From an uncultured Gammaproteobacteria bacterium (lineage in GTDB: Bacteria; Patescibacteriota; Microgenomatia; UBA8517), in the NCBI GenBank assembly GCA_964583685.1, contig CAZOVJ010000002.1, positions 213,862 to 277,861 on the forward strand: 64,000 nucleotides of DNA, given 5' to 3'. Below the pieces are notes generated by a model. It was not told the DNA's origin, ran no database searches, and saw only the letters and a list, made by a program, of their open reading frames with translations. The position numbers were made by a program, and so were the translations under genes. Of this stretch, positions 10,225 through 38,114 are shown piece after piece. Each line of letters starts with the position of its first letter. The first letter of the stretch is position 1.

Positions 10225-11991
10225 TTAAAAACAGAAATATTCCTCGGGTCTAACGTAGACACCGTTTATGGCAAACTCCAAGTGCAAATGAGTGTTTCCT
10301 CCTAGATTAAATAACTCTCCTATTTTTGCCCCACTGGGGATACTCGTCCCGTAATTCGCTTCCCTTTTAAGGTGGGTGAAAACGATTGTGTATCCCCTAT
10401 TGGAGTCAAGATAAACATGGCTCCAGCCGGCTCTACCATTAGAAAAGCTGTTGTCATATACCCAGATGGTTTCTTCACCCAAGACCCGGGGAGCGAGGAC
10501 ATCAGTCGAGCCTGAAGGGAAAACATCGATGGCATAACCATAATAGGAGCACCTATTTGCCTGGCCTGAGCAGATGTTTCCTGGGCTGTTCAAAGGGCCC
10601 CGGCAGCCAGTTCCCTGAGGGAGAGCATAGCGACAACTACCTCCAACCCTTATCCAATACTCATTACTGCCGTGGCCAATTTCCCGTCCAGAATCATAAG
10701 AACCGTCAAGAGCCCCACGCATTCTTCCTCCGGGAACAGGACAATCAATAGGCGGATTGCCGATGACCACAGAGGCATTTGTGCTGGCAGTTGCCCCTTT
10801 CTGTTCTGATGTGTTGGCCGTGACAGTCAGGGAGTCAATAATGATTGAGTTATCATATTCTGTCCCCAAATTTAGTGAGTAGGTAAAGGTAAAACCTTGA
10901 CCCGGAGAGATTGTTTGAGGAAGATCGTTAAGTGCTTCTATCTCTGGATTTGGTTCGGCTGCATTACTTTCTCCGATGACTTTATATTGGTTTCTGATTT
11001 GAATATTGCTTAAACTTCCTTTTTTAGCGTAAATTTTTACTGTATATTCTACTGGGCCAAAACTGGGACAGCCAGCCCTGTTCATACAATTAGGGTCTGC
11101 GGTTTTCTCAATACCGATATAAGGAGAAGTGATTGCTCCTGGGACAAATGAGGGTGCTGGGGGGACAATGTAGGCGCCGGAATTGATGATAAAGAGAATG
11201 ACGGCGACGATGAGGGGGATAGCTACTATTACAACAACTGCAGGAGCAATCATCGCTCCGAGTGCCGCGCCCAATAAACCGGGAAAGGCGACTAAAATTA
11301 CACCAAGGCCAATAGCCGCTCCTGGAACCCCGCCGACCACAGCCAGGCCAGCGGCAGTTAGGCCAGCCATTACCTTTTTCCAGTTACGCTTGAGCAAGGG
11401 AATAACCTTGGTGGCAACCTGACTAGCTAGGGCACCAACAATTGGCGAGGCGACAATTGAAGCGGCAATCCCGGCAATCTTTGAAGCCAGAAACTGAACT
11501 CCTTTTTTAAGAAGTTTAGCCAGTCCTGTTTTAGCTAGTTTTCCAATACCTTTTTTAACAAGACCGCCAACGACTTGTTCTCCGGCCATCCTTCCTACTT
11601 CACCAAACACTCCTTTTAGGGGTATTGGGTTCTGCTTGAGGTTGGTTTCTAGTCTAGTATTAAAGTTTTCTTTCCAGACATTGTGAACATCTGTATTAAG
11701 CTCAACCTTGCTGGCTTCAATATCGGCGCTATGTTGCTGGTATTCATCTAAAAGGTTCAAGACTTCTGGTTCTGGCCTGGCCGGCTGGCCCGGGACTGGT
11801 CGGGAGACCTCTTTTTGGAGCAAGCCTTGAATTTGTTGAAGTTTCTGATCAGCGGGGATGTTCTCAGGGATTGTTCCTCGGAAAAGGGAAAGGAATGTTT
11901 CTTTTGAAACTCCCCGGTATTCATCTGACTGGGGACGAAGACGGAAAAAGCTGGCGACATCGATTAAAAATTGGGCTAATGACCTTTTCAT
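10225..11991 (-). CDS. Membrane protein with C-terminal M23 (LytM-type) peptidase domain; putative T4SS-associated cell-wall hydrolase
   Basis: N-terminal coiled coil, Gly/Ala-rich multi-TM core, C-terminal YAIDVF...GNTHLHLEF (HxxxD and HxH M23 motifs); adjacent to VirB4. Confidence 0.6.
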   Translation of the reverse strand: MKRSLAQFLIDVASFFRLRPQSDEYRGVSKETFLSLFRGTIPENIPADQKLQQIQGLLQKEVSRPVPGQPARPEPEVLNLLDEYQQHSADIEASKVELNTDVHNVWKENFNTRLETNLKQNPIPLKGVFGEVGRMAGEQVVGGLVKKGIGKLAKTGLAKLLKKGVQFLASKIAGIAASIVASPIVGALASQVATKVIPLLKRNWKKVMAGLTAAGLAVVGGVPGAAIGLGVILVAFPGLLGAALGAMIAPAVVVIVAIPLIVAVILFIINSGAYIVPPAPSFVPGAITSPYIGIEKTADPNCMNRAGCPSFGPVEYTVKIYAKKGSLSNIQIRNQYKVIGESNAAEPNPEIEALNDLPQTISPGQGFTFTYSLNLGTEYDNSIIIDSLTVTANTSEQKGATASTNASVVIGNPPIDCPVPGGRMRGALDGSYDSGREIGHGSNEYWIRVGGSCRYALPQGTGCRGPLNSPGNICSGQANRCSYYGYAIDVFPSGSTDVLAPRVLGEETIWVYDNSFSNGRAGWSHVYLDSNRGYTIVFTHLKREANYGTSIPSGAKIGELFNLGGNTHLHLEFAINGVYVRPEEYFCF

Positions 11992-13766
11992 TTTGTGATA
12001 AGTCGATATTCCTCTTGGGAGGAGACAATTTTAATGGGTGCATGATGGGGTCCGGCAAAAAGAATCCCCTCGCCAATATTGGCGGCCATGAGTAATTGTT
12101 TTTCTCCTTGAGATAAATAGAAAACCTCACCCACTTTGTCAATGGCAGCAGGAGATTGCTTTAAGAGGAGTTGCATGGCTGAGTTGGTAAGAATTGCCTT
12201 GCCAATATCTTGAGCCAGGAAATCTTCAACATCTTGGGTAATGGTTGTTAATCCTAGAGAATATTTTCTGGCCCGTTTGACCACAGACCAAAGAAATTGG
12301 GCCGAGTCTGGAAACCTCATCATATGCCAGGCCTCATCAACAACCAGCAGTCTTCTTTTTCGCTCTTTTTTGATTTTTGTCCAGATAAAATCAAGAATGA
12401 TGAACATGGCGATTGGTCTTAAGACATCCTCGAGCTCTCTAACAGAAAAGACGGTAAAAGGATTTCGAATATCAATGTTCGTGTGCTGGTCAAAAATTCC
12501 CACAAAAGAACCTTTGACAAATTTTTCAATTCTAGCGGCCAGGTCAAGGGCTTCTTTTGTTTCCATGCCGATTAAAACTTTGTAAAGATCTTCCATCAGG
12601 GGTGGCTCTTTGCTTTGGCTGTTCGGGTCCTGGGTGATCCCCTTTGCCTTATAGGAGGCAACCAGAGCTCCATCAAGTAACGCTTCTTGAGAGGCGGTTA
12701 GCTGGCCCATGATTATCTTAAGAAGAGAATGGAGAGAAAGGATTTTCAATCCCAGTTGATTTTCCCCCGCTTCATAGATCTGGGAGAGACCAAAAGGATT
12801 AATTTTAGAAGGAGAGGAAAAAGAGAAGGAGATAAATTCGCCTCCAACAGCATCAGCAAGGTTTTTATATTCACTTTCCGGGTCGATGACGATTATCTCT
12901 GTTCCCAACATCAAAGACCTTAAAGACTCAAGTTTGACAAAAAAGCTCTTCCCCGCCCCGCTGGTGGCAAAGATGCTCATATTTGAATTCTCCAAAGAGA
13001 ATCTGTCAAAAATAATAAAGGACTCATTTTGAGAATTGATTCCGTACAAAACACCGCTGTCACTTGAAAGTTCAGCCGAAGTAAAGGGAAAGGTTGTTGC
13101 CAGAGAAGTGGTGTCCATGTTGCGGGTGATTACCAGTTTATCTAAGCCGAAGGGGGCGGTTGAAAGGAAACCCTGTTCCATGTCCAGCGTTGCCTGTCTG
13201 GCCACAACCATTAAAGACCCCAGGGTTGATTCAACTTGACGAGTAAGTTGATTGAGTTCCTCTAAAGATGAAGCAGGGATGGTTATATAAAAGGAAAACT
13301 CAAAAAATCTCTCTACCCCCTTAACCAACTGTTCTTGTAAAACTTTGGCATCTTCCAGTTTTGCCTGGGTTGATGGGTTGGCAATTTTACCTCTTTGTAT
13401 ATCAGTAGAGATTTCCGCCTCCATTTCAGCGATTTTACGTCTGAGATCATCGAGGACGCCTTTTCCCTCAACTGGATGAATATAAAAGGAGATATCCAGG
13501 GAGGCGTTAAAGTTGATTATCGGTTCCAACCAACCAGGGGAGACAAATCTAGGATAGCCGGCCATGAACAGGGTTCGCAGATAAACATCACCAATCTTTA
13601 TGTAGCCAAAATCAACCTCCATCTTTTCCGGGGCGATTAAATCTAAAGAATGGAGAAATTTTTGTTCAAAGGCAATCAAAGGGTCAGCGATTTTTGGCTT
13701 TTCCACTATGGGGGCAGGAACCGGAGTTGTTCTTTTCTCAACAGGCTTTTTTTTAGGCAGTTTCAT
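11988..13766 (-). CDS. virB4: VirB4/TrbE/CagE-family conjugative ATPase (C-terminal ATPase part)
   Basis: Walker A SGAGKSFF, Walker B LLVVDEAWHMM, 592 aa. Confidence 0.8.
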   Translation of the reverse strand: MKLPKKKPVEKRTTPVPAPIVEKPKIADPLIAFEQKFLHSLDLIAPEKMEVDFGYIKIGDVYLRTLFMAGYPRFVSPGWLEPIINFNASLDISFYIHPVEGKGVLDDLRRKIAEMEAEISTDIQRGKIANPSTQAKLEDAKVLQEQLVKGVERFFEFSFYITIPASSLEELNQLTRQVESTLGSLMVVARQATLDMEQGFLSTAPFGLDKLVITRNMDTTSLATTFPFTSAELSSDSGVLYGINSQNESFIIFDRFSLENSNMSIFATSGAGKSFFVKLESLRSLMLGTEIIVIDPESEYKNLADAVGGEFISFSFSSPSKINPFGLSQIYEAGENQLGLKILSLHSLLKIIMGQLTASQEALLDGALVASYKAKGITQDPNSQSKEPPLMEDLYKVLIGMETKEALDLAARIEKFVKGSFVGIFDQHTNIDIRNPFTVFSVRELEDVLRPIAMFIILDFIWTKIKKERKRRLLVVDEAWHMMRFPDSAQFLWSVVKRARKYSLGLTTITQDVEDFLAQDIGKAILTNSAMQLLLKQSPAAIDKVGEVFYLSQGEKQLLMAANIGEGILFAGPHHAPIKIVSSQEEYRLITK

Positions 13767-14445
13767 TCTGGGAATTTTCTCCTTTCTTTATGACTTTTAT
13801 GGGTTGGGGATTATATGTTTCGTAAAAAAGGTTTATTAATTGTTCTGTTGTTAGCTGTTTTAATTTAAGCCCCAAGCGACCGGCTTGTCTGATGATATGG
13901 TCACGTTTTGGGTAAAGGGCGATTTTTGCCTTTTTAATAACATAGTTTTTGGGAAAGGGAAGCGGACCAGATTTTTTGGTTGTTGCCAGGAATGATTTTG
14001 TTATTCCCAATTCAAGGTTGGAGAAGGGGATAATGATGAAAAACCTTTTGCCCAAAACATTTTTCTTTTTGATTGTTTCAGAAATGAAATTTTTATAACC
14101 AGCCATGATGACTTGAAGCTTGGGATTGCTGATTTTCTGGCCTGCTTGGTCAAGGAAGGATAAATAATTTGAGATATCCTTTCTTTGTGAGCGAATGAGA
14201 ATTTGAACAGAAAAGGAAAGGCTGTTTAGAAATGCAGCATAGGAAACAATTACCGCCTGCTGTTCCTTTTCCGACAAGAGACCGAAGTTAAGGGAAGTTG
14301 ATTCAAGAACCAGAGCAGCCCCACCGTTCTTAAAAAGAACAATGTTTTCCAGAACATCGGCTATGGGTAGCCCCTTTTGGCTGGTGGAAGAGATGGGTCT
14401 ATCAGGGATGTTCAGTAAAGGTATTTTTAGGTTTTTAATTGACAA
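13753..14445 (-). CDS. VirB4 N-terminal-domain-like protein (separate ORF overlapping virB4 by 14 nt)
   Basis: 230 aa, ...FKNGGAALVLESTSLNFGLLSEKEQQAVIVSYAAFLNSLSFSVQILIRSQRKDISNYL... resembles the N-terminal region of Gram-positive-type VirB4 proteins; 230+592 aa gives a full-length VirB4. Confidence 0.4.
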   Translation of the reverse strand: MSIKNLKIPLLNIPDRPISSTSQKGLPIADVLENIVLFKNGGAALVLESTSLNFGLLSEKEQQAVIVSYAAFLNSLSFSVQILIRSQRKDISNYLSFLDQAGQKISNPKLQVIMAGYKNFISETIKKKNVLGKRFFIIIPFSNLELGITKSFLATTKKSGPLPFPKNYVIKKAKIALYPKRDHIIRQAGRLGLKLKQLTTEQLINLFYETYNPQPIKVIKKGENSQNETA

Positions 14446-15430
14446 CTTCTACGCTCCTTTCTCTGGCCTTGGCCTTGACGGCAATGGGCGGGATTATTGA
14501 GCCCTTGGCCTCAAATTTTAGAGGGCTAAAGATTAATCCTTCTTTCTCCGTTATCAATTCATAGGTGCCGTTAATCAAGGGAGTTAGGGCTAAGAAATGA
14601 CCAGCCTTGTTGGTTTTAAATGCCCTAACCGGCCGGCCTTGGGCATCTTTTATTTCCAATATCGCGCCTTCAACTATCTTGGCCTCAGGGGTCATTACCT
14701 GACCAACTACAGTATTTGGTCTGGTTGGTGGATTGGGAGGGGCTGCTTCAAGGGAAAACTGGGGCAACTGAGCGCCGATTGCTCTTTGCCCCTTTAGAGT
14801 TTGTTCAACCATGGTTGTTTGCGGCTGGATGACGCCCACCTGGGCTGGGGCTGATGTTTCTTCAACAACAAAACCGGCCTTAGGTGGTTTAGGTGATTTA
14901 GGAATGGGTATTGTTTTTTGGGGAACCTGGACCGTTTTTTGTGGGGCAGAAGGGAGAATAGAGGTTAAGAGGGCGGTAATCTTAGAAAGAAAAGATTGTT
15001 CAGATGTTTCCAGCTTGGTTAGAAAAGGACTTTTCAATTGGGGCAGGGTTGCCAAATAAGTTTCGGCCGCTTTTTCTCCATGGGGGATGATTATTTCTTC
15101 TTTGGGAGCTGGTCTTTCTTCTCTAAAGAAAATTGGTGGCTTTTTACTTCCTCGCCAAAAATAGAGGGTTGGTGAATAAACAGACCTAAAAAAGGCGATA
15201 ATCCATTTTTCTAAAGACCTTTCTTGAAAGGGTAAAAAGGCCAGGGCTGCTCCCAGAAGGGCAAAAAACAAAATAGCCGGCCATTTAATTATCGGATGGA
15301 GAGGGGAGGCATAGAACAAAAGGGAGACCAAACAGCCCCCGGCAAGCTGAAGAAATTGCTTTAAGGTCATGTCTCCTACCAAGCGAAATTGGTAAGAAGA
15401 GATTTGTTGCGGGACAGGATGCTGCTCCAT
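14435..15430 (-). CDS. PrgI/VirB3-like two-TM protein fused to Pro-rich linker and carboxypeptidase-regulatory-like beta domain
   Basis: N-term LKQFLQLAGGCLVSLLFYA...WPAILFFALLGAALAFLPF (2 TM, PrgI-like); C-term GAILEIKDAQGRPVRAFKTNKAGHFLALTPLINGTYEL (CarbopepD_reg-like); directly upstream of VirB4. Confidence 0.4.
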   Translation of the reverse strand: MEQHPVPQQISSYQFRLVGDMTLKQFLQLAGGCLVSLLFYASPLHPIIKWPAILFFALLGAALAFLPFQERSLEKWIIAFFRSVYSPTLYFWRGSKKPPIFFREERPAPKEEIIIPHGEKAAETYLATLPQLKSPFLTKLETSEQSFLSKITALLTSILPSAPQKTVQVPQKTIPIPKSPKPPKAGFVVEETSAPAQVGVIQPQTTMVEQTLKGQRAIGAQLPQFSLEAAPPNPPTRPNTVVGQVMTPEAKIVEGAILEIKDAQGRPVRAFKTNKAGHFLALTPLINGTYELITEKEGLIFSPLKFEAKGSIIPPIAVKAKARERSVEVVN

Positions 15431-15497: not shown

Positions 15498-16148
15498 TTA
15501 GAGTTGTTTCCCTTTGTATTCTCTTGTGGTTTTTATAAAGTATTTGACAATTTCTTCTACTTTATATTCTTCTCGCAGATAATTTACGCCAAAGTCGACG
15601 ATATCCTTAGTATAAACGAGCTGTTCTAGGAAAAGCCTTGGGTTAAATTCACCCCTGAAACGCTTTATTGCTTCTTTTATGACAGAATCTATTGTTGTGT
15701 AACCTTCTTTCAGAAAAAAGAACATATCTACATAATCCCTCCAGGTACCTCGCCGTCCTATGGCATAGGCTTTATTACTTGCTAAATCGTGTAGACTGAA
15801 AAGGTTAATTGAGGTTGTCATAACGAGGGGATGTAGAGGGGGATATGGATATTTTACAAAACTGATTTTAACTTCACCTGGAGTAATGATGTCGATTTGG
15901 TTTGTAATATCTTTTATTATCTGAGAACTATGGCCAAATACTTTTCTAATTTTTTGACGTAAATAATCTGTTGTTTTGCTTTTTATAAAGATGTCGAAGT
16001 CAAAAGATTTTCGGTGTTTTATTTGAAGTGCTATAGCTGTTCCACCTCCAAGTACCCCGGTTTTCTTAAAAGACCCGAGTTTCTTAAAAACCCTAAGCCT
16101 TTCTCTGTCAAATATTTCTAGGTAAATTTTCGACATACTTACTCTCAT
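15498..16148 (-). CDS. Nucleotidyltransferase AbiEii/DUF1814-like toxin
   Basis: GGGTAIALQIKHRKSFDFDIF matches the GGTAL / R-S-D-D-F motifs of AbiEii-family NTases. Confidence 0.55.
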   Translation of the reverse strand: MRVSMSKIYLEIFDRERLRVFKKLGSFKKTGVLGGGTAIALQIKHRKSFDFDIFIKSKTTDYLRQKIRKVFGHSSQIIKDITNQIDIITPGEVKISFVKYPYPPLHPLVMTTSINLFSLHDLASNKAYAIGRRGTWRDYVDMFFFLKEGYTTIDSVIKEAIKRFRGEFNPRLFLEQLVYTKDIVDFGVNYLREEYKVEEIVKYFIKTTREYKGKQL

Positions 16149-16410
16149 CTAGGGTTTGTTTTAGGTTCTCTAAGAGAATTGTTTTAACCCAATTGAAAGA
16201 GAACGAAGAGTAAATCTTCATTGGTTTTTTTAGAAATACTTTTTTTATTTCTTCTTCTGAATAAGCCTTAAAAAGCCACTTTAAATGTTTAAAGGTGCCA
16301 TAAGCCAAGGTTTGGTTGATAATGTAGGCGCGGTCTTTTTCGAGGTCTAGACTTTTGATATCCCGTGACCAAAGAATTGGTTGTAGTCTTTGAGGAATTT
16401 TAGCTTTCAT
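16108..16410 (-). CDS. Putative cognate antitoxin (short AbiEi-like) for the AbiEii-like NTase
   Basis: 100-aa ORF overlapping the NTase gene by 41 nt, upstream position. Confidence 0.3.
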   Translation of the reverse strand: MKAKIPQRLQPILWSRDIKSLDLEKDRAYIINQTLAYGTFKHLKWLFKAYSEEEIKKVFLKKPMKIYSSFSFNWVKTILLENLKQTLDESKYVENLPRNI

Positions 16411-17722: not shown

Positions 17723-19468
17723 ATGTCTGAACAAGGAGAAGGACCGGAGATAATACCTGCTGGTGGGTCGTGGAGCCCGGAGACAATAAAGAGGACAGCC
17801 GAGGCAACAAAGGTTAAAGGCTACGGCCCCATTCGCCCGGGAGGGGAGAAGGAGCAAATCCCGCGTATAGAAATTGATACAGGCCCCCTGGCAGACCAGG
17901 TAAAGGAGTTAATAAAAGGCCAGGAGGGTTTATTGGCTACTTTTGAAGCTCAACGTTTATCAACTGAGCAGCTTCTTGGGCTCTCACAAAAACAGAGTGA
18001 TGAATTAGTCAGAAGTTTGCAAAAGTTGCCGACCAGTCAAGAACGAGCACGGTGGGTGGACGTAGAATATAACCGTCTATTTTATACAAGATTTACTCCC
18101 AACATCGAGCCAAGATTTTACACAGAGATTTCCGATCCAGAAGAGAGAGCATTGTGGGACGCCAGATGGCAACTTGCCCGGGCCGCTTACTTTAAGCTGG
18201 CAACAACCGCCTTTCCCGATAAGTATGTAGAAAATGCAGACATTCAGCTTTTAAGCAATGAGCAGCTGGGGAGGCTTTATAAAATGCCCGGGGTTAAGCC
18301 AATGCTAAAGGCGTATGCAGAGGCAATAGTTGGAAAAAGAAAAGTGGTTGTTGAGAAGGATGGTGAAGACGAGACAATAACAATCTGGGATTGTAAAAGC
18401 ATGGCGGATTTTGAAAAATTCCGGACAAAATTGAGAGGGGAAAGTTTATCTATTGATGAACAGATGAAGGATGCAGTAGAAAGGGAAATAGAGAAACGAG
18501 AGCGTTCGGAATCAAGAAAGCTTAATGAAAGAGAAAGAAGAGAAACCAGAAAGCTTTTGGAAAAGGAGGCGGATGCGGTTGCCTTTAACCTATTTTGGGT
18601 TTCTAATCAAATAGAATCCTCTAATAGTCGTTATTCTGATGCCGGTAAGTTTCATAGATTACCTGGCGGAATGGCCTCACTGGAATTTTGGAGTGTGATG
18701 CATCCACAGGAGAGATTTGAGATTAAGGTCGAGCATTCTCAGAATTGGGGAGCGTTTAGTACTTGGGGAATTGAACAAATAGAAAGATTTAAAAATGAGG
18801 TGGGTTTTGACGATGATGATAAGGATAATAAGATAGAATTTCAAGCCGCTCCACGAGATAAATATTGGGAAAGGGGTCCAACAACAGAGCTTCCCGAAAA
18901 AAAGGGTAAGGTTTATACAATTTATGCCCCAGAATGTTATCCGATACTCACTTGTAGAAGTCTTTTTGAACATACCCGAGAGGAGGGGGGGAGTAAAAAA
19001 ACACTTTTGGAGCGCTTCTCAAAGGGCGGAGATGTAATCTGGGGAGATATTGGGGCAGACGCAGCAGTAAGGTGGCTTACCAGTAAATTTAACAAAGCGG
19101 TACCGCTTCTTGAGTATTATAATCCCGGAAAACCGTTCGAAAGGCGAGATTTCGGTTGGGGAAAGACATGGGCAGACCCTTTGAAAGAATTACTCGAAGC
19201 CCGTTTGAAATTGAACAAGGCCCTGGAAGGCCCCAAAGGGAAAGAAAGAAAGGAAGGATCCATACTGGGGATAACCCACCAGACCTATCACAACCTAAAA
19301 GTTTGGGCCATTTATGCTGCTCATGGGGGTGTGGCCTTTCCAGACAAAAGAGAACCGACACTAAATCTACCGGGTCTTCCGGGGAATGAGCAATTAATAT
19401 TAGGGAGGGCGCTGCGCCACGAAAAAGTTGAATATTTGGATATGCATGAAGGCTTCAGAATAGAATAA
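17723..19468 (+). CDS. Hypothetical protein (581 aa, charged coiled-coil middle, W/G-rich C-terminal region)
   Basis: Long ORF immediately downstream of the zinc-ribbon protein; no recognisable motifs. Confidence 0.5.
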   Translation: MSEQGEGPEIIPAGGSWSPETIKRTAEATKVKGYGPIRPGGEKEQIPRIEIDTGPLADQVKELIKGQEGLLATFEAQRLSTEQLLGLSQKQSDELVRSLQKLPTSQERARWVDVEYNRLFYTRFTPNIEPRFYTEISDPEERALWDARWQLARAAYFKLATTAFPDKYVENADIQLLSNEQLGRLYKMPGVKPMLKAYAEAIVGKRKVVVEKDGEDETITIWDCKSMADFEKFRTKLRGESLSIDEQMKDAVEREIEKRERSESRKLNERERRETRKLLEKEADAVAFNLFWVSNQIESSNSRYSDAGKFHRLPGGMASLEFWSVMHPQERFEIKVEHSQNWGAFSTWGIEQIERFKNEVGFDDDDKDNKIEFQAAPRDKYWERGPTTELPEKKGKVYTIYAPECYPILTCRSLFEHTREEGGSKKTLLERFSKGGDVIWGDIGADAAVRWLTSKFNKAVPLLEYYNPGKPFERRDFGWGKTWADPLKELLEARLKLNKALEGPKGKERKEGSILGITHQTYHNLKVWAIYAAHGGVAFPDKREPTLNLPGLPGNEQLILGRALRHEKVEYLDMHEGFRIE

Positions 19469-19649: not shown

Positions 19650-21311
19650 TTATTGTTTTTTAAGCCCCAGCAGCCTCCTGGCTGTGCGGGCGATAGCAAT
19701 CTTCCGGCCCACATCTTGTCCAGCGCCTCTCTCGCCTTCTTCTAAGGCCTGAATTCCCATTTCTGCACCGTATAAACCTCCCCATTTACCCACCTGGCGG
19801 GATGGGCCAAAAGTTTCTCCTATTGCCGCACCGAAGGGGAAGGGTTTGCCTTCAATAAGCGAGCGAATCAAATTTCCGGCAGAAGGAACAAGGAAAAGAA
19901 TGACCAGAGAGACAAGAAAACCCACAAGAGCGGGGCTTCCCCAAAATCCCGGAAGTGAAATAAGGTCCGAAGAAATTGTGTTGTTGCTAAGATCAAAGAG
20001 ATCAAGGCCGCTGCTGCTAAATGGCCCAAGCTTAAGAGGAACTGTTGCCCAAAAGAAGTAGTGAGATAGAAAGAGCATAATAATAATCGTTGGATAGACA
20101 GCAGCATTGGCAAGCAGGTTTTTTAGCCAAGAACCAATTCCTCCAAAGCCAGGAAAGGCACCAAGAAGTAGGATTAAAGGGCCGGCAATTATTAAGAGGA
20201 GAAGGTTGATAAAGGTTTTAACTTGGAGCCAGACGATACGAATTACAGCGACAAGCAGAGCAATGAAGATTAATAGGAGCATTACTAAACCCATGATAGC
20301 CCCGACGACCGCGCCAGCCCCCATCGCATACCCCGCTCCTATGATTGCAGCCCCCCCGACAAGAGGCACAGTAGCGGCAATCAACAATGAGAGGCAAATC
20401 GCAAGGAGAGAGGGGCCTCCTATCATTTCTTGAATTAGCCTTCCCAAATCGAGATAGCTGATATCTGTGCCAACAGATTTCACACATACTCCTACTGCCG
20501 CGACGACAACATAAGAGAGGTCTATTACAAGACCGGCAATAGCATAGGAGAAAGCAATTAAAATCAAGACAAGTATTAATCGGGGGAGGGCAGATTGAAT
20601 GGTGATTACTGTTTGGGGCGAGATTTTGACCCGGAACATAATCATAAAGGCAATAGCCACAAAAACAAGAACCATTAAGAAGTAGGCTATATTACTGGTT
20701 GCCTTCCAAAGGGACTGAATGGGTTGGAGGTTTCTAAAACCGTAGCCTTGGGCACGGGCCTCAGGGATGATGTGGAGACGCGAGGCTGCGTCAGCCAGAT
20801 ACTGGACACCCGAGGCAGGATGATTTGTTGAAAAGGAATCACCGACAGCGGCCAAGGTGAGTATTGGCCCTAATGAAGGGAGAGATGATTGATCAGGAGA
20901 CTCTGTGTTTTCTTGCTGATTTCCTATTAAACTTGGAACGATTACATTTAAACAGTCTCTTACCATCTCAAGATTACCGCTTTTACCTTCGGCCAAACAC
21001 CTGCTTACTTCCTCGTCGTTGGCAATTATTGTTAATGAATGTCCTATCCAGGCAACCTGGGCATAGGTATAGCGCTCGCCGAAGATTTCAGTTGGGTTAT
21101 CCGGATCAAAGACCCTGAGAACAAAATCGGCAAAATCTGGATTATACCAGGGCCTTGGCTCCTCCTGAGCCCTGGCAACGGACACGGTAAAAGAAATCAA
21201 GAGAAAGCAGGCAAGGAGAATCGAGACAAGCAGTTTTTTGGGCATAGCAAAATTATAATAACATATCTTATCGCCCAGGGGGGAGATGACCTTCGTCAAT
21301 CCACATTGCAA
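19650..21311 (-). CDS. VirB6/TrbL-like polytopic membrane protein
   Basis: Signal/anchor, periplasmic N-domain, at least 6 TM in Gly/Ala-rich core; location next to pilin array and SLT protein. Confidence 0.45.
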   Translation of the reverse strand: MQCGLTKVISPLGDKICYYNFAMPKKLLVSILLACFLLISFTVSVARAQEEPRPWYNPDFADFVLRVFDPDNPTEIFGERYTYAQVAWIGHSLTIIANDEEVSRCLAEGKSGNLEMVRDCLNVIVPSLIGNQQENTESPDQSSLPSLGPILTLAAVGDSFSTNHPASGVQYLADAASRLHIIPEARAQGYGFRNLQPIQSLWKATSNIAYFLMVLVFVAIAFMIMFRVKISPQTVITIQSALPRLILVLILIAFSYAIAGLVIDLSYVVVAAVGVCVKSVGTDISYLDLGRLIQEMIGGPSLLAICLSLLIAATVPLVGGAAIIGAGYAMGAGAVVGAIMGLVMLLLIFIALLVAVIRIVWLQVKTFINLLLLIIAGPLILLLGAFPGFGGIGSWLKNLLANAAVYPTIIIMLFLSHYFFWATVPLKLGPFSSSGLDLFDLSNNTISSDLISLPGFWGSPALVGFLVSLVILFLVPSAGNLIRSLIEGKPFPFGAAIGETFGPSRQVGKWGGLYGAEMGIQALEEGERGAGQDVGRKIAIARTARRLLGLKKQ

Positions 21312-23889
21312 CTCCGTGACAATAGGTTATCCCGGCCCCCCAGCGGATCACTCCGATATCGACGTAGCCCCCACGTTCCCTGGTTTCCTCATCGCTGCAG
21401 CCAATAGTTCCACCATAGTTGCCAACATAAACCATGTCTCCCCCAAGAGTCACCTTTCCATTACTGTCATACTCGAGCTGGATGCCCCGGCCGCCATATG
21501 TAGGGTCAGAGGGATTAAATCTACCGTATTTTTTCCAAAGTAAGATGCGCGCAGCCAGTTCCAGAGCATCAGAGGCTTCGCAAGGGTTTAAGAAATTGGG
21601 ACTGTTGGGGTTCTGTTCGTCTGTTGTCGTCACGCCATAGTAGGCACCGCGACCGATTTGTACAGGACCGCAGTAAGAAGAGCGTAGTTCGTAGGTATCC
21701 CATTCCCCACAGAGCTCACCCTTTTTCGAGGGTTTACATGGGCCTGATTGGCTACCATTGCTTTCGATTTGCCAGATAGCCTCAAGGACTTCTGCTGGCA
21801 CATCGTATCTGACGGCAATACCGGCCAGGTCCTGAGAAATCGGATGAGGAAAGCCAGAGATTGTTTCGCCAAAGTCTTGAGGCCGTAAAGCCTTTTGGAT
21901 TCCCTTTAAAAAATATTCATAGATTCCACCAAGATGGGGGATAAAAATATTAGCCCTTTCACCAGACCTGTTATTGGATGGATTTCCGGCCAGAACTTCG
22001 ACACCATCAGTAGTTGATGAATAACGGGCAGTAGTTACTCCAGGCAAATCCATAAGCTCAACTTGCTCCAGAAGACCTTTGGGATAAAGTCGTTTATAAA
22101 TAGATTGTTCCCCGGCCACCAGCTTGTCCCAGACCTCGTCAGCCTTGGGCGTTCTGGTATAAACAGAAAGAGCAACATAAACATCTTTTTCGCAAATGTC
22201 TACAGTGGACTGACGCCGGCATTGATCAATTTCCTCTTGGGAAGGAGGGGTACCCCCGGGAAGTCGTCCTTGAAGTTGGTGAATACAATTTCGATACCTA
22301 CTTTCATCAAGTTCTGCCTCATCAGCCCCACCGAAATCACAAGTAAATTTGGCGGTATAACGGATAGTTCCGGACATTTGTTCATCTGTGTCTTCGTTTG
22401 CAGAGATCGCTTGTTCATGGTATTCACCAAAAAGGTCGTCGCCTGAATTCCAGCGGGCATTTTCTAAATCGCAATAATCGGTGTCATAAAACTTGACCTT
22501 TTCCGTCAGTACTCCCAGGGTTTCTCCTCCAATAGCGGCACTATCTTGGTCACTTCTGACCTTGGGTATCTTGGGTTTTTTGCCTGGAACATAGGTTTTT
22601 TGCAGCAGATTGGCTAAATCGGAAACCTCTTCCATGTGGCTAAAGTAAAGATTGTGGAAATCGCTATCTGGATAATCCTCGTAGTCTGGGGAATCAGGTT
22701 CAAAAGTTACATCCGTAACCTCGACATCGTTCTCAAGATTAATTTCCGGCTGGCTGGTGGCTGAAAGGTCAGCAATAACCTGTCCCTTTCTATTCTCGGT
22801 GGAGGAATAGGGGATATAGGGAAAGAGGTAGGAGAAAAGGCGTCGGTCACTAAGAGGATCGTCGATGCAGAAGTAGATTGGTAACCCAAAGACTCCAAGA
22901 TGGGGAGTACAAACTTTTCCTCTCCATCTTAGATAATCCCGCCAGTAATCGATAAAATTTGAATAATCTTCTTCACGAGGAGGGAGATAGTTAATCCATT
23001 CGCTAAGGCGATATTTGTTTTCAGAGAAAAAGAGGTTTGCAAATAGAGTCTGTAATGCTGGAGCTAGATTTTCACCAACCAAATTTTTGGTTGCCGGTTC
23101 ATAGCAAGGAACCTGGACTTCAGGATTAAGCGGAAAAAGAGCGCCGGGCTCTGCGGTGCAGACGACTATTTGATTATGTCTAAAAGAAGTAACCTCGAAT
23201 TCCTGGGTTAGACGGGCATTGGCTATCTGCTGAAATCGTGCATCGGCTTGAACGCGCCAGGGAAGGAGTTTGTTTAAGGGGCCTGAATAATCGATGAGAA
23301 GATAGCTTATTTGCTCAGGGGTATAGGGACTATAAGAGCTGACAGGCCAATTGCCAAGGGACAATTCTTCTGGCCGGTAAAGGGACCCGTTCAAATACCA
23401 ACTGACATATTCGTTCATCCTGGTGGATGGACCAAGCATATTTCCACCTAGATCACCCATCCCTTCTTGACTGTTTGGCACGAGCTGGGTGTTGCCCATG
23501 ATGGGCAGTTCGGCGTCGGATAAGCCTATGGAGACATAGGCTGTTTCCTGGGATTCGTAATAGCAGGTTCGCGAGCCATCAGGACCTATTTTGCAGCTCC
23601 CGGTAGCTGGGGTAACGGTGAAGGTTTTTTTGATAATCAGGTCATTGCCGCAATAAAGCTTGGTTTCTTTAACTTCCCTATCACAGGGGCTGGCTTGGTA
23701 GGGCCGGAGAGAATGAAACTCGTCATCATCAGTTATTTCGTTTGTTTCATTACAGGGAACATAAGGCTCAGGAACCTGGGCAAAGGTAGAAGCAGGGAAT
23801 ACCAAATGCGAAGTACCAAATGCGAAGTACCAAATGAAGATAGTTATCGTATCTCGTATCTCGTATCTCGTGGTTTTGGGCAGACTCAT
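21268..23889 (-). CDS. Large secreted Cys-rich surface protein with C-terminal lytic-transglycosylase (SLT/VirB1-like) domain
   Basis: 873 aa; signal peptide; ...VPAEVLEAIWQIESNGSQSG... SLT-type catalytic ES motif; many Cys. Confidence 0.55.
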   Translation of the reverse strand: MSLPKTTRYEIRDTITIFIWYFAFGTSHLVFPASTFAQVPEPYVPCNETNEITDDDEFHSLRPYQASPCDREVKETKLYCGNDLIIKKTFTVTPATGSCKIGPDGSRTCYYESQETAYVSIGLSDAELPIMGNTQLVPNSQEGMGDLGGNMLGPSTRMNEYVSWYLNGSLYRPEELSLGNWPVSSYSPYTPEQISYLLIDYSGPLNKLLPWRVQADARFQQIANARLTQEFEVTSFRHNQIVVCTAEPGALFPLNPEVQVPCYEPATKNLVGENLAPALQTLFANLFFSENKYRLSEWINYLPPREEDYSNFIDYWRDYLRWRGKVCTPHLGVFGLPIYFCIDDPLSDRRLFSYLFPYIPYSSTENRKGQVIADLSATSQPEINLENDVEVTDVTFEPDSPDYEDYPDSDFHNLYFSHMEEVSDLANLLQKTYVPGKKPKIPKVRSDQDSAAIGGETLGVLTEKVKFYDTDYCDLENARWNSGDDLFGEYHEQAISANEDTDEQMSGTIRYTAKFTCDFGGADEAELDESRYRNCIHQLQGRLPGGTPPSQEEIDQCRRQSTVDICEKDVYVALSVYTRTPKADEVWDKLVAGEQSIYKRLYPKGLLEQVELMDLPGVTTARYSSTTDGVEVLAGNPSNNRSGERANIFIPHLGGIYEYFLKGIQKALRPQDFGETISGFPHPISQDLAGIAVRYDVPAEVLEAIWQIESNGSQSGPCKPSKKGELCGEWDTYELRSSYCGPVQIGRGAYYGVTTTDEQNPNSPNFLNPCEASDALELAARILLWKKYGRFNPSDPTYGGRGIQLEYDSNGKVTLGGDMVYVGNYGGTIGCSDEETRERGGYVDIGVIRWGAGITYCHGVAMWIDEGHLPPGR

Positions 23890-26443: not shown

Positions 26444-27388
26444 TTAACCTCCTCCGAATCCTGGTAGCCTTAATATATTAACCCCAATTAGTTTTAGAAT
26501 AAAGACTGAGAAAATTAAGAGAATTAGGCCGGCAATGGCCGAGGTCAGAAGCTCTTGGCCGGCCTTTAATCTTTCCGGATTGCCGCTGCAGGTCATGATT
26601 TGGAAGCCGGCAAAAAGTATTAGAAGAAAGGCAATACCGCCGCCAATGCCAATTGCCCAGCGGAGAAAAAAGCCAATAAATTCATTAGTGTCTCCAATGG
26701 GAATGCAACCAATGGCAGTGTTGATACCCGTATCACCATCACAAAATATGTCAGCCTCTTCAGCTACACAAGAGCACGAACCCTCACTGCTACACTCTGC
26801 TGTAGAACCAGAAAGACAATTGTCAGAGTCAACTCCCCAATACCCTCTTCCTGCTCCAGAAAGAGGTTGCAGGGGATCTGCTGGCAAGACATAATATTTA
26901 CAGGTGCAGCTATTATCTGGTTCTACGATGCTGGTCTCTGGCGGTGATCCGCTACAACTGCACATGGTGCAATTGGAATAGCAGGTTACTAGGCCTGGGA
27001 TATCACAGTTGTTCACAGTAATACTACATACCCCAGAAGATCCAATAGAACACTCACAAGTGTTGGGAGAAGCAGGGGTTTCGGCCAGGCAAATAAAAGA
27101 CCCGGCAGTATCGCATTCCTCTTGAGATAGCCCGTGACACTGGGAGCCAGTTCTAAAGCCTTCATTGCAATTGGAAATTAGTGGTACACACCTTCCTCCG
27201 TCCTCAAGAGGTAGCCAGTAACATTGGTAGGTACCGGGGCCTTCTTGAGCAAAGATTTCTTTTGGAGCAAAAACTTGTATCAATAAAAAAAGGGCAGAAG
27301 CTAAAAACAACCTTTTCATAATTTTCAGTTTAGCACAAGGGAAAGAAGTGAGTATAGAGAACTTGCTATAATAAAAGACTGTGGGCAT
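26444..27388 (-). CDS. Cys-rich extracellular domain fused to C-terminal pilin-like module (candidate tip adhesin/minor pilin)
   Basis: Signal peptide, about 30 Cys in N-terminal 220 aa, C-terminus LILFAGFQIMTCSGNPERLKAGQELLTSAIAGLILLIF matches the pilin-paralog motif. Confidence 0.5.
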   Translation of the reverse strand: MPTVFYYSKFSILTSFPCAKLKIMKRLFLASALFLLIQVFAPKEIFAQEGPGTYQCYWLPLEDGGRCVPLISNCNEGFRTGSQCHGLSQEECDTAGSFICLAETPASPNTCECSIGSSGVCSITVNNCDIPGLVTCYSNCTMCSCSGSPPETSIVEPDNSCTCKYYVLPADPLQPLSGAGRGYWGVDSDNCLSGSTAECSSEGSCSCVAEEADIFCDGDTGINTAIGCIPIGDTNEFIGFFLRWAIGIGGGIAFLLILFAGFQIMTCSGNPERLKAGQELLTSAIAGLILLIFSVFILKLIGVNILRLPGFGGG

Positions 27389-29180
27389 TCAAAATTCTCC
27401 CTCAGAGAGGGATCCCGCTTTGCGGGAAAAATTCAAAACTCTCCCGCGGAACGGGATAATATTTATTTTGGGGGTGGTTGTTTTGGCTTCCTTGCTATTC
27501 ACTATTCACTGTTCACCGTCCATCGTTCACTGTCCACTGTTTAGTCTTGCCCGAGCCACCAATTGTCCTGAAACAGACTATGATTGTCAAATCACCGAGA
27601 TTCAAAGGGAAAAAGATGCCTTGACTCCGGCCCATGAATACAACAAAAAAGAACTGGCCGATTTAAATAAACAGCTGGCAGGTTTGAAAAAAAGAATTCT
27701 TCTAATTTCCGATCAATTGGTAAAGGTAGGAGCAGATATTTTTCAGAGAGAAGAAGACCTGGCTTATGCCCAAGAGATTTTTGAAGAAAAAACCAACAAT
27801 CATTATAAATTTATCAGGACTTATGACCCGATTTTTCCCTTTCTTTCTTCAACCAATGCCTCGCAAGCCTTCCGGGAGATAATCTTCCGTCAAAAGGCGG
27901 CCGGTGAAGACCGCAAAACAATGGAGAAATATGCCCAGGACATTCTTCAATTAAGAGAGGACAAAAAAGGCTTAGAAAAAAATCAGGCCAGTTTAGCATC
28001 AGTCCAAGGTAAAGTAGATGAAAGGGCGACTTTTCTCTCGGGCGAAGTAGAAAAAGTTGAGGTATATTTAGCCAGCCTGACTGCAAAACAGCAACAATTC
28101 ATTGCCCGGAAATTGGGAAGCCTTAATTTGCCAACGACTTTGGGTGCCGGGCCCTTATATTGTGTTGACGACAGGAACTTAGAGCCGGGATTTAGGCCGG
28201 CCTTTGCCTTTTTCACCTATGGTATTCCCCACCGGGTGGGTATGAATCAATATGGAGCCTATGGCCGAGCAAAATCAGGCCAGTCTTATCAAGACATTCT
28301 TCGTACATACTTTGAAAGCATCTCTTTTGAAAAACGGCCCAACATAAATATAAAAGTTGCAGGACATGGGACAATGCCTTTAGAAACCTATCTTTTGGGA
28401 ATCTATGAAATGCCTGATAGCTGGCCCATCGAGGCCCTCAAGGCCCAAGCAGTGGCGGCTCGCTCTTATGCTTTGGCTTATACCAACAATGGAGCCAACG
28501 AGATTTGCACTACCCAGAAGTGCCAGGTTTACAAAGGAGGCAATAAAGGAGGTAATTGGGAGGCGGCCGTTCACCAAACAGAGGGAGAGGTGGCTCTTCA
28601 CGCTGGCCAGATAATTACCGCCTGGTATGCCTCGACCTCGGGTGGCTATACCTTTAGTTCCTCTGATGTGGGTTGGAGTTATCGACCCTGGACTAAAAGA
28701 TTGAGAGATACGAATGGCGATGTGGCTAGTTTTTCCGACCTTCAACAGAAAGCCTATGATAAGGAATCTCCCTGTTTTTATGCGGCCCAGGGTTGGCGCA
28801 AGGAGTACGGGAAATCGGCTTGGTTGAAGTCAGAGGAAGTCGCCGATATTGTCAATGTCCTATTGTTGACCCAAACAGACCCCTCGACCCGCGAGCATTT
28901 ATACCAAACAGATAAACCAAATCCAGCCGGGACCGATACCTGGAGCGCTGAACGGGTCAAACAGGAGTTGAACAATCGGGACATTGCTTCTTATAACAGT
29001 GTTTCAAATGTTTCCAGTTCCGGTGTTGATTGGGGGACTGGCAGAACAACAGGCATAACCGTTAGTGGCGATGCCGGTACAAAAACACTCGACGGTTCTC
29101 AATTCAAGGACTTTCTCAATCTCAGGGCTCCGGCCAATATCCAGATAGTTGGTCCGCTTTACGGAGTCGAAAAAAAGTAA
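27381..29180 (+). CDS. SpoIID/LytB-domain protein with N-terminal anchor and coiled coil
   Basis: ...ALKAQAVAARSYALAYTNNGANEICTTQKCQVYKGG...: SpoIID/LytB signature. Confidence 0.7.
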   Translation: MGIQNSPSERDPALREKFKTLPRNGIIFILGVVVLASLLFTIHCSPSIVHCPLFSLARATNCPETDYDCQITEIQREKDALTPAHEYNKKELADLNKQLAGLKKRILLISDQLVKVGADIFQREEDLAYAQEIFEEKTNNHYKFIRTYDPIFPFLSSTNASQAFREIIFRQKAAGEDRKTMEKYAQDILQLREDKKGLEKNQASLASVQGKVDERATFLSGEVEKVEVYLASLTAKQQQFIARKLGSLNLPTTLGAGPLYCVDDRNLEPGFRPAFAFFTYGIPHRVGMNQYGAYGRAKSGQSYQDILRTYFESISFEKRPNINIKVAGHGTMPLETYLLGIYEMPDSWPIEALKAQAVAARSYALAYTNNGANEICTTQKCQVYKGGNKGGNWEAAVHQTEGEVALHAGQIITAWYASTSGGYTFSSSDVGWSYRPWTKRLRDTNGDVASFSDLQQKAYDKESPCFYAAQGWRKEYGKSAWLKSEEVADIVNVLLLTQTDPSTREHLYQTDKPNPAGTDTWSAERVKQELNNRDIASYNSVSNVSSSGVDWGTGRTTGITVSGDAGTKTLDGSQFKDFLNLRAPANIQIVGPLYGVEKK

Positions 29181-32038: not shown

Positions 32039-32470
32039 ATGCGAGTGATTAACAAAAGAGCAAGATTTAATTACCGGCTAATAGATGAACTTGAAACAGG
32101 AATAAGTCTTACAGGTAAAGAAGTGAAGGCAGTGAGAGCTGGCCTTGTTGACTTAACCAGTGCTCATGGAAAAATTTTGCGAGGAGAAGTTTATCTAGTG
32201 GGAGCGGTTATCAATGCTTCTCGGGCCCAAAACTACGACCCTTCGCGTAGTAGAAAACTACTTTTGCATAAAAAGGAGATTGTTTCCCTTCAGAACAAAA
32301 TGAAACAAAAAAAGTTGACTCTTGTGCCTACTGCAATGTATACTAGGGGACGTTTAATTAAGTTGAAGCTAGCTTTAGCTAAAATTAAGCGCAAATTCGA
32401 GAAAAAAGAGACAATTAAGAAACGAGATATAGAGAGAGAAATCGAAAAAGAATTAAGGGGACGTCAATAG
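32039..32470 (+). CDS. smpB: SsrA-binding protein SmpB
   Basis: MRVINKRARFNYRLIDELETGISLTGKEVKAVRAG...: canonical SmpB N-terminus. Confidence 0.9.
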   Translation: MRVINKRARFNYRLIDELETGISLTGKEVKAVRAGLVDLTSAHGKILRGEVYLVGAVINASRAQNYDPSRSRKLLLHKKEIVSLQNKMKQKKLTLVPTAMYTRGRLIKLKLALAKIKRKFEKKETIKKRDIEREIEKELRGRQ

Positions 32471-32816
32471 GTTTCGACGAAAAGCACCTTTAAAAGATTG
32501 CAAGCAGACTTTGGTCTAGAGTCTTAAAAAAAGGCCGAACAAAACAAGCGTCAACGAAAAAAGTTACGCTCCCCAATACGCAGTAGCTTAATTGGGGTGT
32601 TCACCGACTTGTTTCTCGACCGAGCCGGATGGGCATAAACCAGTCGAGATGTAAGATATAGCATGACTTAAGGCCATATCTTAAGATTTTTAAGTCTTAC
32701 TCTGAATTATCCGGCCAACTGGTAAAATTTAGAGGAAATACTAAAGTTGGCAAAGCTTGTAGAGATTTTTTAAAGAACTTATTCGGACGAGGGTTCGATT
32801 CCCTCCGTCTCCACCA
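32457..32816 (+). ncRNA. ssrA: tmRNA (SsrA)
   Basis: 5' GGGGACGUCAAUAGGUUUCGACG pairs with 3' ...GGUUCGAUUCCCUCCGUCUCCACCA (tRNA-like T-arm + acceptor, CCA encoded); internal tag frame ...VNEKSYAPQYAVA-stop; follows smpB. Confidence 0.8.
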
Positions 32817-33548: not shown

Positions 33549-33640
33549 GGCGGTGAGGGTGGGATTCGAACCCACGGTCCCGATATAATCGGAACACTCG
33601 CTTTCCAGGCGAGCCCGTTCGACCACTCCGGCACCTCACC
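33549..33640 (-). tRNA. tRNA-Ser (anticodon GGA)
   Basis: rc = GGTGAGGTGCCGGAGTGGTCGAACGGGCTCGCCTGGAAAGCGAG + long variable arm + GGTTCGAATCC T-loop; loop CUGGAAA. Confidence 0.8.
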
Positions 33641-33656
33641 ACATTTCGACAAATTC

Positions 33657-34094
33657 TTAAAACGGTCGAGGCTTTTGTCTTTCTAATTTTTTTAAAACCT
33701 CTTTAGCCTGCCTGAGCATTAATTTGTCTCGCTTATTGGCCAATTTTCTTACAGCTTTGCCATATTCTAGCCAGGCACAGTCAGTATATCCAATAACTTC
33801 ACTACCACTTATTTGGACTACTAGATAATAAAGACATCTTTGTGGTACGACTTTGTTGTTAATTTTTACAACCCCACCCGACCGTCCCGCTTCTTCTAAA
33901 ACTTTTACTTCCATTGCTCCCTGTTCGCCCATTGTCCGTATTGCGGTCCGCGCCGTTGACTCTGTTTTTCTTGCTGCTGCTTTGGGAATTTCCCATTTGC
34001 TGTCTTGGTTTTGTTTTACGATGAACCAAACAGTTTTACCCCTGAGTTTTTTGAAAACTATTGGGGCTGATAGTAAGAGTTGTTGGTTTCTCAT
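33657..34094 (-). CDS. Hypothetical protein (start trimmed to MRNQQ... to avoid tRNA overlap)
   Basis: ORF-track version (to 34145) overlaps tRNA-Ser(UGA); internal Met at 34094 abuts the tRNA. Confidence 0.35.
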   Translation of the reverse strand: MRNQQLLLSAPIVFKKLRGKTVWFIVKQNQDSKWEIPKAAARKTESTARTAIRTMGEQGAMEVKVLEEAGRSGGVVKINNKVVPQRCLYYLVVQISGSEVIGYTDCAWLEYGKAVRKLANKRDKLMLRQAKEVLKKLERQKPRPF

Positions 34095-34104
34095 AAGATT
34101 AAAG

Positions 34105-34188
34105 CGGAGGGTACAGGATTCGAACCTGTGCGGGTTTTCACCCACTGGTTTTCAAGACCAGCGCCTTAGACCACTCGGCCAACCCTCC
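34105..34188 (-). tRNA. tRNA-Ser (anticodon UGA)
   Basis: rc = GGAGGGTTGGCCGAGTGGTCTAAGGCGCTGGTCTTGAAAACCAG + long variable arm + GGTTCGAATCC. Confidence 0.8.
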
Positions 34189-34220
34189 AAGGTTCTGGTT
34201 TTTCCACAATAATTATTTTG

Positions 34221-34308
34221 CGGTGGGGACAGGATTCGAACCTGCGCGAGGGGATTAACCCTCAATGGTTTAGCAAACCATCGCCTTAGACCACTCGGCC
34301 ACCCCACC
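34221..34308 (-). tRNA. tRNA-Ser (anticodon GCU)
   Basis: rc = GGTGGGGTGGCCGAGTGGTCTAAGGCGATGGTTTGCTAAACCAT + long variable arm + GGTTCGAATCC. Confidence 0.8.
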
Positions 34309-34377
34309 AAACAGACTCAATTATAACAGATTTTAGGTTTGGAATGAAGCTTAAAATAAAGTATAATAAAATCCAAG

Positions 34378-34893: not shown

Positions 34894-34965
34894 GCCCTTG
34901 TAGCTTAACGGATAGAGCATTGGTTTGCGGAACCGAAGATACCAGTTCGATTCTGGTCAAGGGCA
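34894..34965 (+). tRNA. tRNA with anticodon GCG (Arg by anticodon; unusual isoacceptor)
   Basis: GCCCTTGTAGCTTAACGGATAGAGCATTGGTTTGCGGAACCGAAGATACCAGTTCGATTCTGGTCAAGGGCA; cloverleaf folds, anticodon loop UUGCGGA. Confidence 0.55.
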
Positions 34966-34969
34966 CATT

Positions 34970-38028: not shown

Positions 38029-38114
38029 CTAGGGTTTGAGGCAAGAGTTTGATATAATATGGAGGCTAGAGAACATTTTACATTTTGCACTTTGAATTTT
38101 GAATTGGTTATCAT

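Follow-up and report, generated by a model that had tools for sequence, protein, structure and literature searches.

The closest described counterparts of the locus reported here are two translational switches that run on short repeats. In Escherichia coli K1, the gene of the O-acetyltransferase NeuO (CUS-3 prophage) contains a 5'-AAGACTC-3' variable number tandem repeat (VNTR) of 2-93 copies, and high-frequency switching has been shown (PMC3046976). In Neisseria, many copies of a CTCTT pentamer lie in the leader-peptide-coding region of Opa, and switching occurs at ~1e-3 per cell per generation (PMC3960869). The present analysis concerns a gene for a predicted secreted protein of 873 amino acids (aa; 21268..23889, minus strand) in a stretch of 64,000 nt from contig CAZOVJ010000002.1 (assembly GCA_964583685.1, positions 213,862 to 277,861 of the forward strand). 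The contig is deposited under an uncultured Gammaproteobacteria bacterium and assigned by GTDB to Patescibacteriota, Microgenomatia, UBA8517. This whole stretch is called the window, and positions refer to it unless a locus is named. The first codons of the gene hold two perfect tandem arrays, with units of 7 and 14 nt, which make up much of the signal-peptide-coding segment. A change by a single unit would truncate the protein, but no copy-number variant was found in three assemblies.

A literature search found no description of phase variation in Candidate Phyla Radiation (CPR) bacteria and no paper that joined a heptanucleotide repeat, phase variation and a signal peptide. The kind of feature is already known; the CPR setting and a lineage-wide pattern in signal-peptide-coding ends are the new leads.

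Non-triplet arrays in the signal-peptide-coding segment

The reading frame is open from the ATG at 23889 through AQVPEPYVPC. Homologues with a short N-terminus start with MNLPKK, MSLPK or MKSLPK and continue with a hydrophobic stretch followed by AQ[VI]PxPYVPC, and the window protein reads MSLPKTT-RYEIRDT-ITIFIWYFAFGTSHLVF-PASTFAQ / VPEPYVPC. Based on these N-termini, and on the NCBI and Logan gene calls that both give 873 aa from this codon, the ATG at 23889 is the true start. It follows that both arrays fall within the segment that encodes the signal peptide (codons 1-38, MSLPKTTRYEIRDTITIFIWYFAFGTSHLVFPASTFAQ / VPEPYVPC; 23776..23889, minus strand), which is supported by the homologue N-termini and by a predicted helix over residues 8-30 in an AlphaFold2 (AF2) model. 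The segment comprises an n-region, MSLPKTTRYEIRDT, an h-region, ITIFIWYFAFGTSHLVF, and the cleavage motif PASTFA-Q. A Sec-type signal peptide is expected to combine positive charge in the n-region, hydrophobicity in the h-region and a family-conserved small-x-small motif, all of which are seen here. The protein is thus predicted to be exported by Sec, and cleavage probably takes place at the conserved AQ[VI]P site.

Tandem Repeats Finder placed the heptanucleotide array, ACGAGAT/GAGATAC, at 23847..23871 (3.6 copies) and the 14-nt array, CATTTGGTACTTCG, at 23800..23836 (2.6 copies), both on the minus, coding strand and with 100% match. The coding strand runs ATGAGTCTGCCCAAAACC, ACGAGAT x3, ACGAT, AACTATCTT, CATTTGGTACTTCG x2, CATTTGGTA, and the two arrays fall within codons 7-30. 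Neither unit length is a multiple of three. The three full copies of the heptamer (21 nt) encode the n-region insert RYEIRDT, while the two full copies and remainder of the 14-mer are read in all three frames (IWYFA / FGTS / HLV) and yield most of the h-region, with the hydrophobic core IWYFAFGTSHLV. A first-pass annotation of this DNA had reported two non-triplet arrays just after the ATG and held that they build the signal peptide. Both statements are borne out, and its array coordinates were right to within 1-3 nt, with the exact ends now those given above.

Only three perfect arrays in the 64-kb window match themselves over a run of 14 nt or more, and two of the three are the heptamer and 14-mer arrays. 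A mean of 0.01 per window is expected by chance, as estimated from 100 block shuffles that preserve local composition. Further copies of either unit were absent from the window and from 104 fetched loci. The same array sequence is present in a JGI contig (22.5 kb, 100% identity), in the Logan assembly of SRR3095939 and in the NCBI record of the 873-aa call, and is therefore not an assembly artefact.

Removal of exactly three heptamers in silico gives MSLPKTTITIFIWYF..., an N-terminus of the type found in homologues. An ancestor derived by collapse of both arrays was rejected, as the loss of one unit from each (-1,-1) runs into a TAA stop and the loss of two from each (-2,-2) removes the hydrophobic core. 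Among the collapsed states examined, a clean in-frame ancestor exists for the heptamer array only.

Effect of unit changes and uniformity of copy number

In silico, adding or removing a single unit of either array leads to a stop after 12-56 codons, and the frame stays open for changes of (-3,0), (+3,0) or (+1,+1) units of heptamer and 14-mer. Since a one-unit change truncates the protein, the architecture could act as an ON/OFF switch. Two properties of contingency loci are thus present: a non-triplet repeat within the 5' part of the open reading frame (ORF) and, in silico, toggling between full-length and truncated products by one unit. Two others are not. Three and two full units fall short of a repeat number high enough for frequent slippage, and no copy-number polymorphism, OFF alleles included, was found in three assemblies and ~60 homologues. 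The assembled sequences from JGI, NCBI and Logan do not differ in copy number, and the ~60 homologues, which are those with a short N-terminus, contain no OFF allele, all of them having an in-frame signal peptide. For each heptamer-bearing homologue, 17-19 contigs encode one and the same protein.

Comparison across strains, which the first-pass annotation had proposed together with phase variation, gave three uniform assemblies and no close strain. No relative nearer than 46% identity was present in the collections searched, a metagenome scan returned relatives at 27-50% identity only, and the 90%-identity cluster of the 873-aa protein holds the same sequence under two gene calls and nothing else. 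Of the phase-variation proposal, the frameshift caused by a one-unit slip stands, but neither a copy-number variant (three assemblies) nor an OFF allele (~60 homologues) accompanies it. The 873-aa gene is currently ON, and phase variation at the arrays is not demonstrated.

Divergence of signal-peptide segments between close relatives

The signal-peptide segment evolves mainly by insertions and deletions (indels) and far faster than its flanks. Between the family members P0080 and P0147 (L101 603-690 vs L102 1185-1260), the flanks are identical at 72/73 and 111/114 positions, while the signal-peptide island between them matches at 39/81 with 12 gap columns. Likewise, L045/L047 (2884-3000) and L103/L104 (1501-1580) place two signal-peptide types ahead of the same mature N-terminus, one with a heptamer array of 35 nt and the other without. 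Two discrete types therefore coexist within one 90%-identity protein cluster. Such islands consist of the signal-peptide segment and a short upstream spacer and show ~50% identity with many indels, against 93-99% identity in the flanks. Evolution mainly by indels is concluded because the island alleles differ by many of them and because other 90%-identity clusters contain signal-peptide indels of 3 and 9 nt. The island alleles keep a weak similarity at the DNA level, with 4/500 shuffles reaching the observed score. An origin of the type produced by diversity-generating retroelements was considered and rejected, as the alleles differ by many indels.

A second hypervariable island separates P0080 and P0147 at residues ~515-590 (L101 ~1978-2134), where a Cys-rich loop is wholly different and the rest is ~95-97% identical.

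Heptamer arrays across the lineage

In 687 kb of dereplicated related loci, 21 perfect period-7 arrays were observed against ~4 expected, while periods 4, 5 and 8 occurred at chance level. Heptamer arrays were present in 12/374 N-terminal and 0/806 internal hydrophobic segments (p=9e-7), a comparison that leaves out the window's own arrays. The density of period-7 arrays was 0.24/kb outside ORFs, where they are the commonest class, 0.12/kb over the initial 150 nt of ORFs and 0.016/kb over their remainder. This gradient fits survival under weak constraint.

At homologous or neighbouring 5' ends, heptamer arrays were found in L008 (CTCTATA x3.9; 3033-3059), L079 (TTCACTA, ~6 copies), L066 and L077 (two genes). 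L045/L047 carry ATTAGAA x5, and L060 has ~7 copies of TCTACAT (6170-6216) in a gene that lies a few hundred nucleotides downstream of the family gene. Other signal-peptide regions hold arrays of 5-7 copies that have decayed (window 27495-27543, L079, L060 and L045). The arrays of homologues are conserved neither in sequence nor in position and are often decayed, and homologous positions carry unrelated heptamers.

According to PMC4692102, heptameric simple sequence repeats are over-represented in many bacteria, and a slippage bias related to the polymerase footprint has been proposed. With such a heptamer bias already known, mutational bias together with weak constraint explains most of the heptamer pattern seen here. 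The 5' ends that encode signal peptides are hot spots of heptamer arrays and indels in this lineage and offer a concrete example, open to testing, of how mutation bias shapes coding sequence.

Further repeats of the same kind lie elsewhere in the window. In a gene with a SpoIID/LytB domain (ORF 27381-29180, plus strand), the N-terminal membrane-anchor or signal region at 27495-27543 consists of seven decayed heptamers, CTATTCA CTATTCA CTGTTCA CCGTCCA TCGTTCA CTGTCCA CTGTTTA. CTATTCA is a rotation of the TTCACTA that is repeated ~6x in the signal peptide of the family gene of an unrelated genome (L079 3015-3048). An intergenic array, ACATTTT ACATTTT GCACTTT GAATTTT GAATT, occupies 38073-38105 just upstream of a tRNA gene (38115-38186) and is the window's third period-7 array, against an expectation of 0.1. 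A perfect trinucleotide array, (CTA)x6, is located at 8586-8603, in the spacer that separates ORFs 7078-8448 and 8644-9756.

Probable slippage products versus a possible dedicated switch

The explanation favoured here, held with slightly more confidence than doubt, is that heptamer-biased slippage recently produced the two arrays and that they are retained in a weakly constrained signal-peptide segment that turns over by indels. The gene product would be exported by Sec, rich in disulfides and an accessory protein to a Patescibacteria-type (MPF-FATA-like) type IV secretion system (T4SS) and pilin cluster in a Woesebacteria-like member of Microgenomatia, and its C-terminal domain probably cuts peptidoglycan, either in the service of the secretion or pilus machinery or on the surface of the host. 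Replication slippage would have made two young tandem arrays, with the heptamer adding 21 nt in frame to the n-region and the 14-mer (2 x 7 nt) yielding the hydrophobic core through its three frames. If either array grew or shrank by one unit, the gene would turn OFF. With only two to three full units and no observed variants, this points to a low-rate mutational liability or mode of evolution rather than to a demonstrated dedicated switch. Known repeat switches usually have many more units than two or three, although the alleles of NeuO go down to 2 copies.

Three points weigh against this explanation. At 5' coding ends, periods 7, 6 and 9 are represented at 15 : 2 : 1, compared to 11 : 6 : 5 outside ORFs (Fisher p=0.046, marginal); pure tolerance would favour in-frame units, so that the excess of period 7 at these ends is not explained by tolerance. 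Second, to reach three in-frame heptamers by single-unit steps requires two frameshifted intermediates, which would be easier if the OFF state were tolerated or selected. Finally, perfect arrays that adjoin each other in the gene of a surface protein, next to a variable pilin array, form the classical setting of a contingency locus.

These same points would speak for a true contingency locus, that is, a selected and reversible translational ON/OFF switch of the NeuO/Opa type by which an epibiont varies an exposed, T4SS-associated protein. We regard this as unlikely. It would account for non-triplet units of which any single change truncates the product, for arrays that are both perfect and local, for the dominance of period 7 over the in-frame periods 6 and 9 at signal-peptide 5' ends, for the frameshifted intermediates implied by the triple heptamer and for the hypervariability of the signal-peptide segment between close strains. 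The position in the leader-peptide-coding 5' region is that of the Opa repeats (PMC3960869), and the heptamer VNTR of NeuO is likewise ON only at multiples of three within its 2-93 copies (PMC3046976). However, only three full 7-mers and two full 14-mers are present, and neither the assemblies nor the homologues revealed a variant or OFF allele. The arrays of homologues are moreover unconserved, often decayed and invariant across 17-19 contigs, and the heptamer excess is present outside ORFs as well. If the repeats do switch, they would give an obligate epibiont, whose genome is tiny, a cheap, stochastic on/off control of a secretion-system surface protein.

A bolder extension, which we consider distinctly improbable, is that heptamer slippage in the signal-peptide 5' ends of T4SS and surface genes in Microgenomatia constitutes a selected, lineage-wide contingency mechanism, in which genes go through frameshifted OFF states before new combinations of repeats bring them back to ON. 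Such a mechanism would yield both the perfect arrays and the cassette-like divergence islands, and no earlier phasome would be on record for the Candidate Phyla Radiation.

Perhaps the repeats act instead at the level of nucleic acid, as a protein-binding iteron or operator or through an mRNA structure that controls translation, in which case the frameshift would be irrelevant. In the minimum-free-energy fold the 7-mer and 14-mer arrays do pair with each other, and the 14-mer holds an imperfect inverted copy of the heptamer. However, the folding energy is ordinary (z=-0.62), no Rfam family and no promoter- or terminator-like site was found, and the units recur nowhere else in the window or the 104 loci, with unrelated heptamers at homologous positions. 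Such a role is therefore very improbable.

It is also highly improbable that translation begins downstream, at the TTG of codon 29 (23805), with the repeats in an untranslated spacer where they could act, if at all, on the initiation of transcription or translation. The JGI call (P0001, 845 aa) does begin at this codon, L29. Its product would, however, have no signal peptide, whereas all homologues with a short N-terminus have one, and the MSLPK encoded from the upstream ATG aligns with their MNLPKK, MSLPK and MKSLPK starts in a frame that is open throughout. No promoter-like site was found. JGI also truncated P0145, the DNA of which is identical to that of the full-length P0080 and in frame from an upstream ATG. 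JGI calls in this family favour downstream starts, with TTG codon 29 here and Met18 in P0145 (L105 1001), and so remove the signal peptide; gene starts in the 873-aa family are thus mis-called by some pipelines. Lastly, a chance pattern or assembly artefact without biological meaning, for which low copy numbers and the metagenomic origin of the data could be cited, is barely credible given ~0.01 such arrays expected per window, identical sequences in three assemblies from different pipelines and units much shorter than reads or k-mers.

Protein family and C-terminal domain

The 873-aa protein has 375 homologues, all in records of Patescibacteria, Woesebacteria or Microgenomates and the nearest at 46% identity, and no Pfam or NCBIfam model matched the family. 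Residues 39-680 (21850..23775, minus strand) form a conserved, predicted extracellular module with 12 near-invariant Cys and many invariant residues in an alignment of 83 family sequences. The AF2 model of this module has a predicted local distance difference test (pLDDT) score of mostly 80-95, and no fold match to this part was found in the PDB. With 20 Cys in total (2.3%), the description of the protein as Cys-rich in the first-pass annotation is fair, while "giant" is overstated for 873 aa.

The C-terminal domains vary within the family, other members carrying different modules in exchange. In the window protein, residues 684-866 (21292..21840, minus strand) are a candidate lysozyme- or lytic-transglycosylase-like domain, as indicated by motifs and by sub-threshold profile and fold matches. 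The motif IWQIESNGS spans residues 705-713 (21751-21777) and includes the candidate catalytic Glu709; GPVQI follows at 21655-21669. In an alignment with eight relatives, E709 is invariant and G741-x-x-Q-I conserved. Both an E-S/T motif and a subsequent G-L-M-Q-like motif are present and align with EtgA and a lytic transglycosylase. Scores against Pfam SLT_2 (PF13406) were 12.7-15.1 bits (E=0.013-0.07), and the gathering cut-off of 24.3 was not reached. Pfam SLT (PF01464) gave a sub-threshold match in 3/8 relatives (best E=0.0044). The best PDB profile matches were to EtgA (E=0.31) and to a lytic transglycosylase (E=1.2), with alignments that cover exactly the Glu and G-x-x-Q-I motifs. All of the top 30-50 Foldseek matches belonged to the lysozyme superfamily, with weak E=0.1-3 (pLDDT of 76 for the full-length model and 60.6 for the domain model). 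A single-sequence PDB search with the C-terminal domain returned nothing, and NCBIfam gave no hit for the 873-aa protein. From motifs and predicted models, the C-terminal domain is likely lysozyme-like. The VirB1-like lytic transglycosylase label given to it earlier is partly supported: the IWQIESNGS motif near the C-terminus and its conserved Glu are present, and profile and fold scores are all sub-threshold.

Genomic context

Eight VirB2-like T4SS pilin genes (PF18895; 23897..27388, minus strand) lie upstream, the last of them ending 8 nt before the ATG at 23889. The first (26444-27388, minus strand, 314 aa) has a long Cys-rich N-terminal extension ahead of its pilin domain. Downstream follows a gene for a polytopic membrane protein of 531 aa (19650..21245, minus strand). 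Its start at ATG 21245, 22 nt past the stop of the 873-aa gene, is called by both JGI and Logan and agrees with homologues that share MxKxL...PWYNP[SD]F. The overlap of 44 nt between the two genes that the first-pass annotation had noted appears only with a longest-ORF reading from TTG 21311 and, given this start, is not real. The VirB6-like label attached to the downstream gene likewise found no family match, as no VirB6/TrbL/PrgH hit was obtained in Pfam at E<=0.1 or in NCBIfam at E<=0.01; the protein fits a VirB6/PrgH-like channel by polytopic topology and gene position only.

T4SS core genes occupy 10225..15430 (minus strand) and comprise PrgI-like, TrsD-like, VirB4 ATPase (CD1110 family) and M23-peptidase-like genes, assigned by NCBIfam and Pfam. 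The VirB4 assignment is NF045971 at E=5.6e-114, and TrsD was also identified by NCBIfam. From start to start, the 873-aa gene is 7.5-13.7 kb from the VirB4, TrsD-like and PrgI-like genes and thus lies within a T4SS gene cluster, as a VirB1-type protein would; these three genes and the eight pilin genes are found within 13 kb. A toxin-antitoxin-like DUF6922/AbiEii pair (window 15498-16410, minus strand; L001 17396-18308) separates, as an insertion, the PrgI-like gene from the other genes of the cluster. Directly after the polytopic gene and convergent to the T4SS/pilin operon, an ORF of 581 aa (17723-19468, plus strand) has no Pfam or NCBIfam match. Elsewhere in the window, at 32039-32816 and 33551-35054, an smpB gene is directly followed by a tmRNA gene (147.9 bits), with six tRNA genes nearby.

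Even without switching, the family is of interest as a large, uncharacterised one located between the pilin array and the candidate channel gene in Microgenomatia T4SS loci. It may also supply the VirB1-like function which PMC12102498 reports as scarce in Microgenomatia.

Comparison with known systems

T4SS loci of Patescibacteria and the pilin arrays of Microgenomatia are described in PMC12102498, where, in the text available, VirB1 and VirB6 homologues are scarce in Microgenomatia and VirB6 is hard to detect. The window resembles these loci in its CD1110-type VirB4, its PrgI-like and TrsD-like genes and its eight PF18895 pilins, and differs by the 873-aa protein family, which that part of the description does not mention. 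With the specialised secretion hydrolases of the SLT superfamily (VirB1, EtgA and the TrsG/CD419 type) the 873-aa protein shares a place in a T4SS cluster and the conserved E-S and G-x-x-Q-I motifs; its best PDB matches are EtgA and lytic transglycosylases, and its predicted fold matches, with weak scores, lysozyme-superfamily entries only. It differs from them in that the domain scores are sub-threshold and the domain is a minor part of the 873 aa, behind an N-terminal module of 640 aa without known relative.

In NeuO, as here, a heptamer array begins a few codons past the start, a full-length product arises only if the copy number keeps the frame, and three copies amount to one peptide of seven residues, RLKTQDS in NeuO and RYEIRDT in the window protein (PMC3046976). 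In contrast to NeuO, the window gene has three full copies and no variation in three assemblies, a product that is predicted to be exported, an insert that lies in the signal peptide and a second array of 14 nt. The likeness to Opa concerns this second array, as in both cases non-triplet repeats read in all three frames encode a hydrophobic part of the signal peptide of a surface protein, and slippage shifts the frame (PMC3960869). The unit here is one of 14 nt in 2.6 copies, in a CPR phylum and another protein family.

As for the period itself, the heptamer repeats of Xanthomonas, Nostoc and Calothrix, as cited in PMC4692102, are matched by period 7 as the dominant non-random period in the window and in the 687 kb of related loci. 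While those repeats are mostly intergenic and G-rich, the ones found here concentrate in 5' ends that encode signal peptides, with units that vary and are mostly A/C/T-rich.

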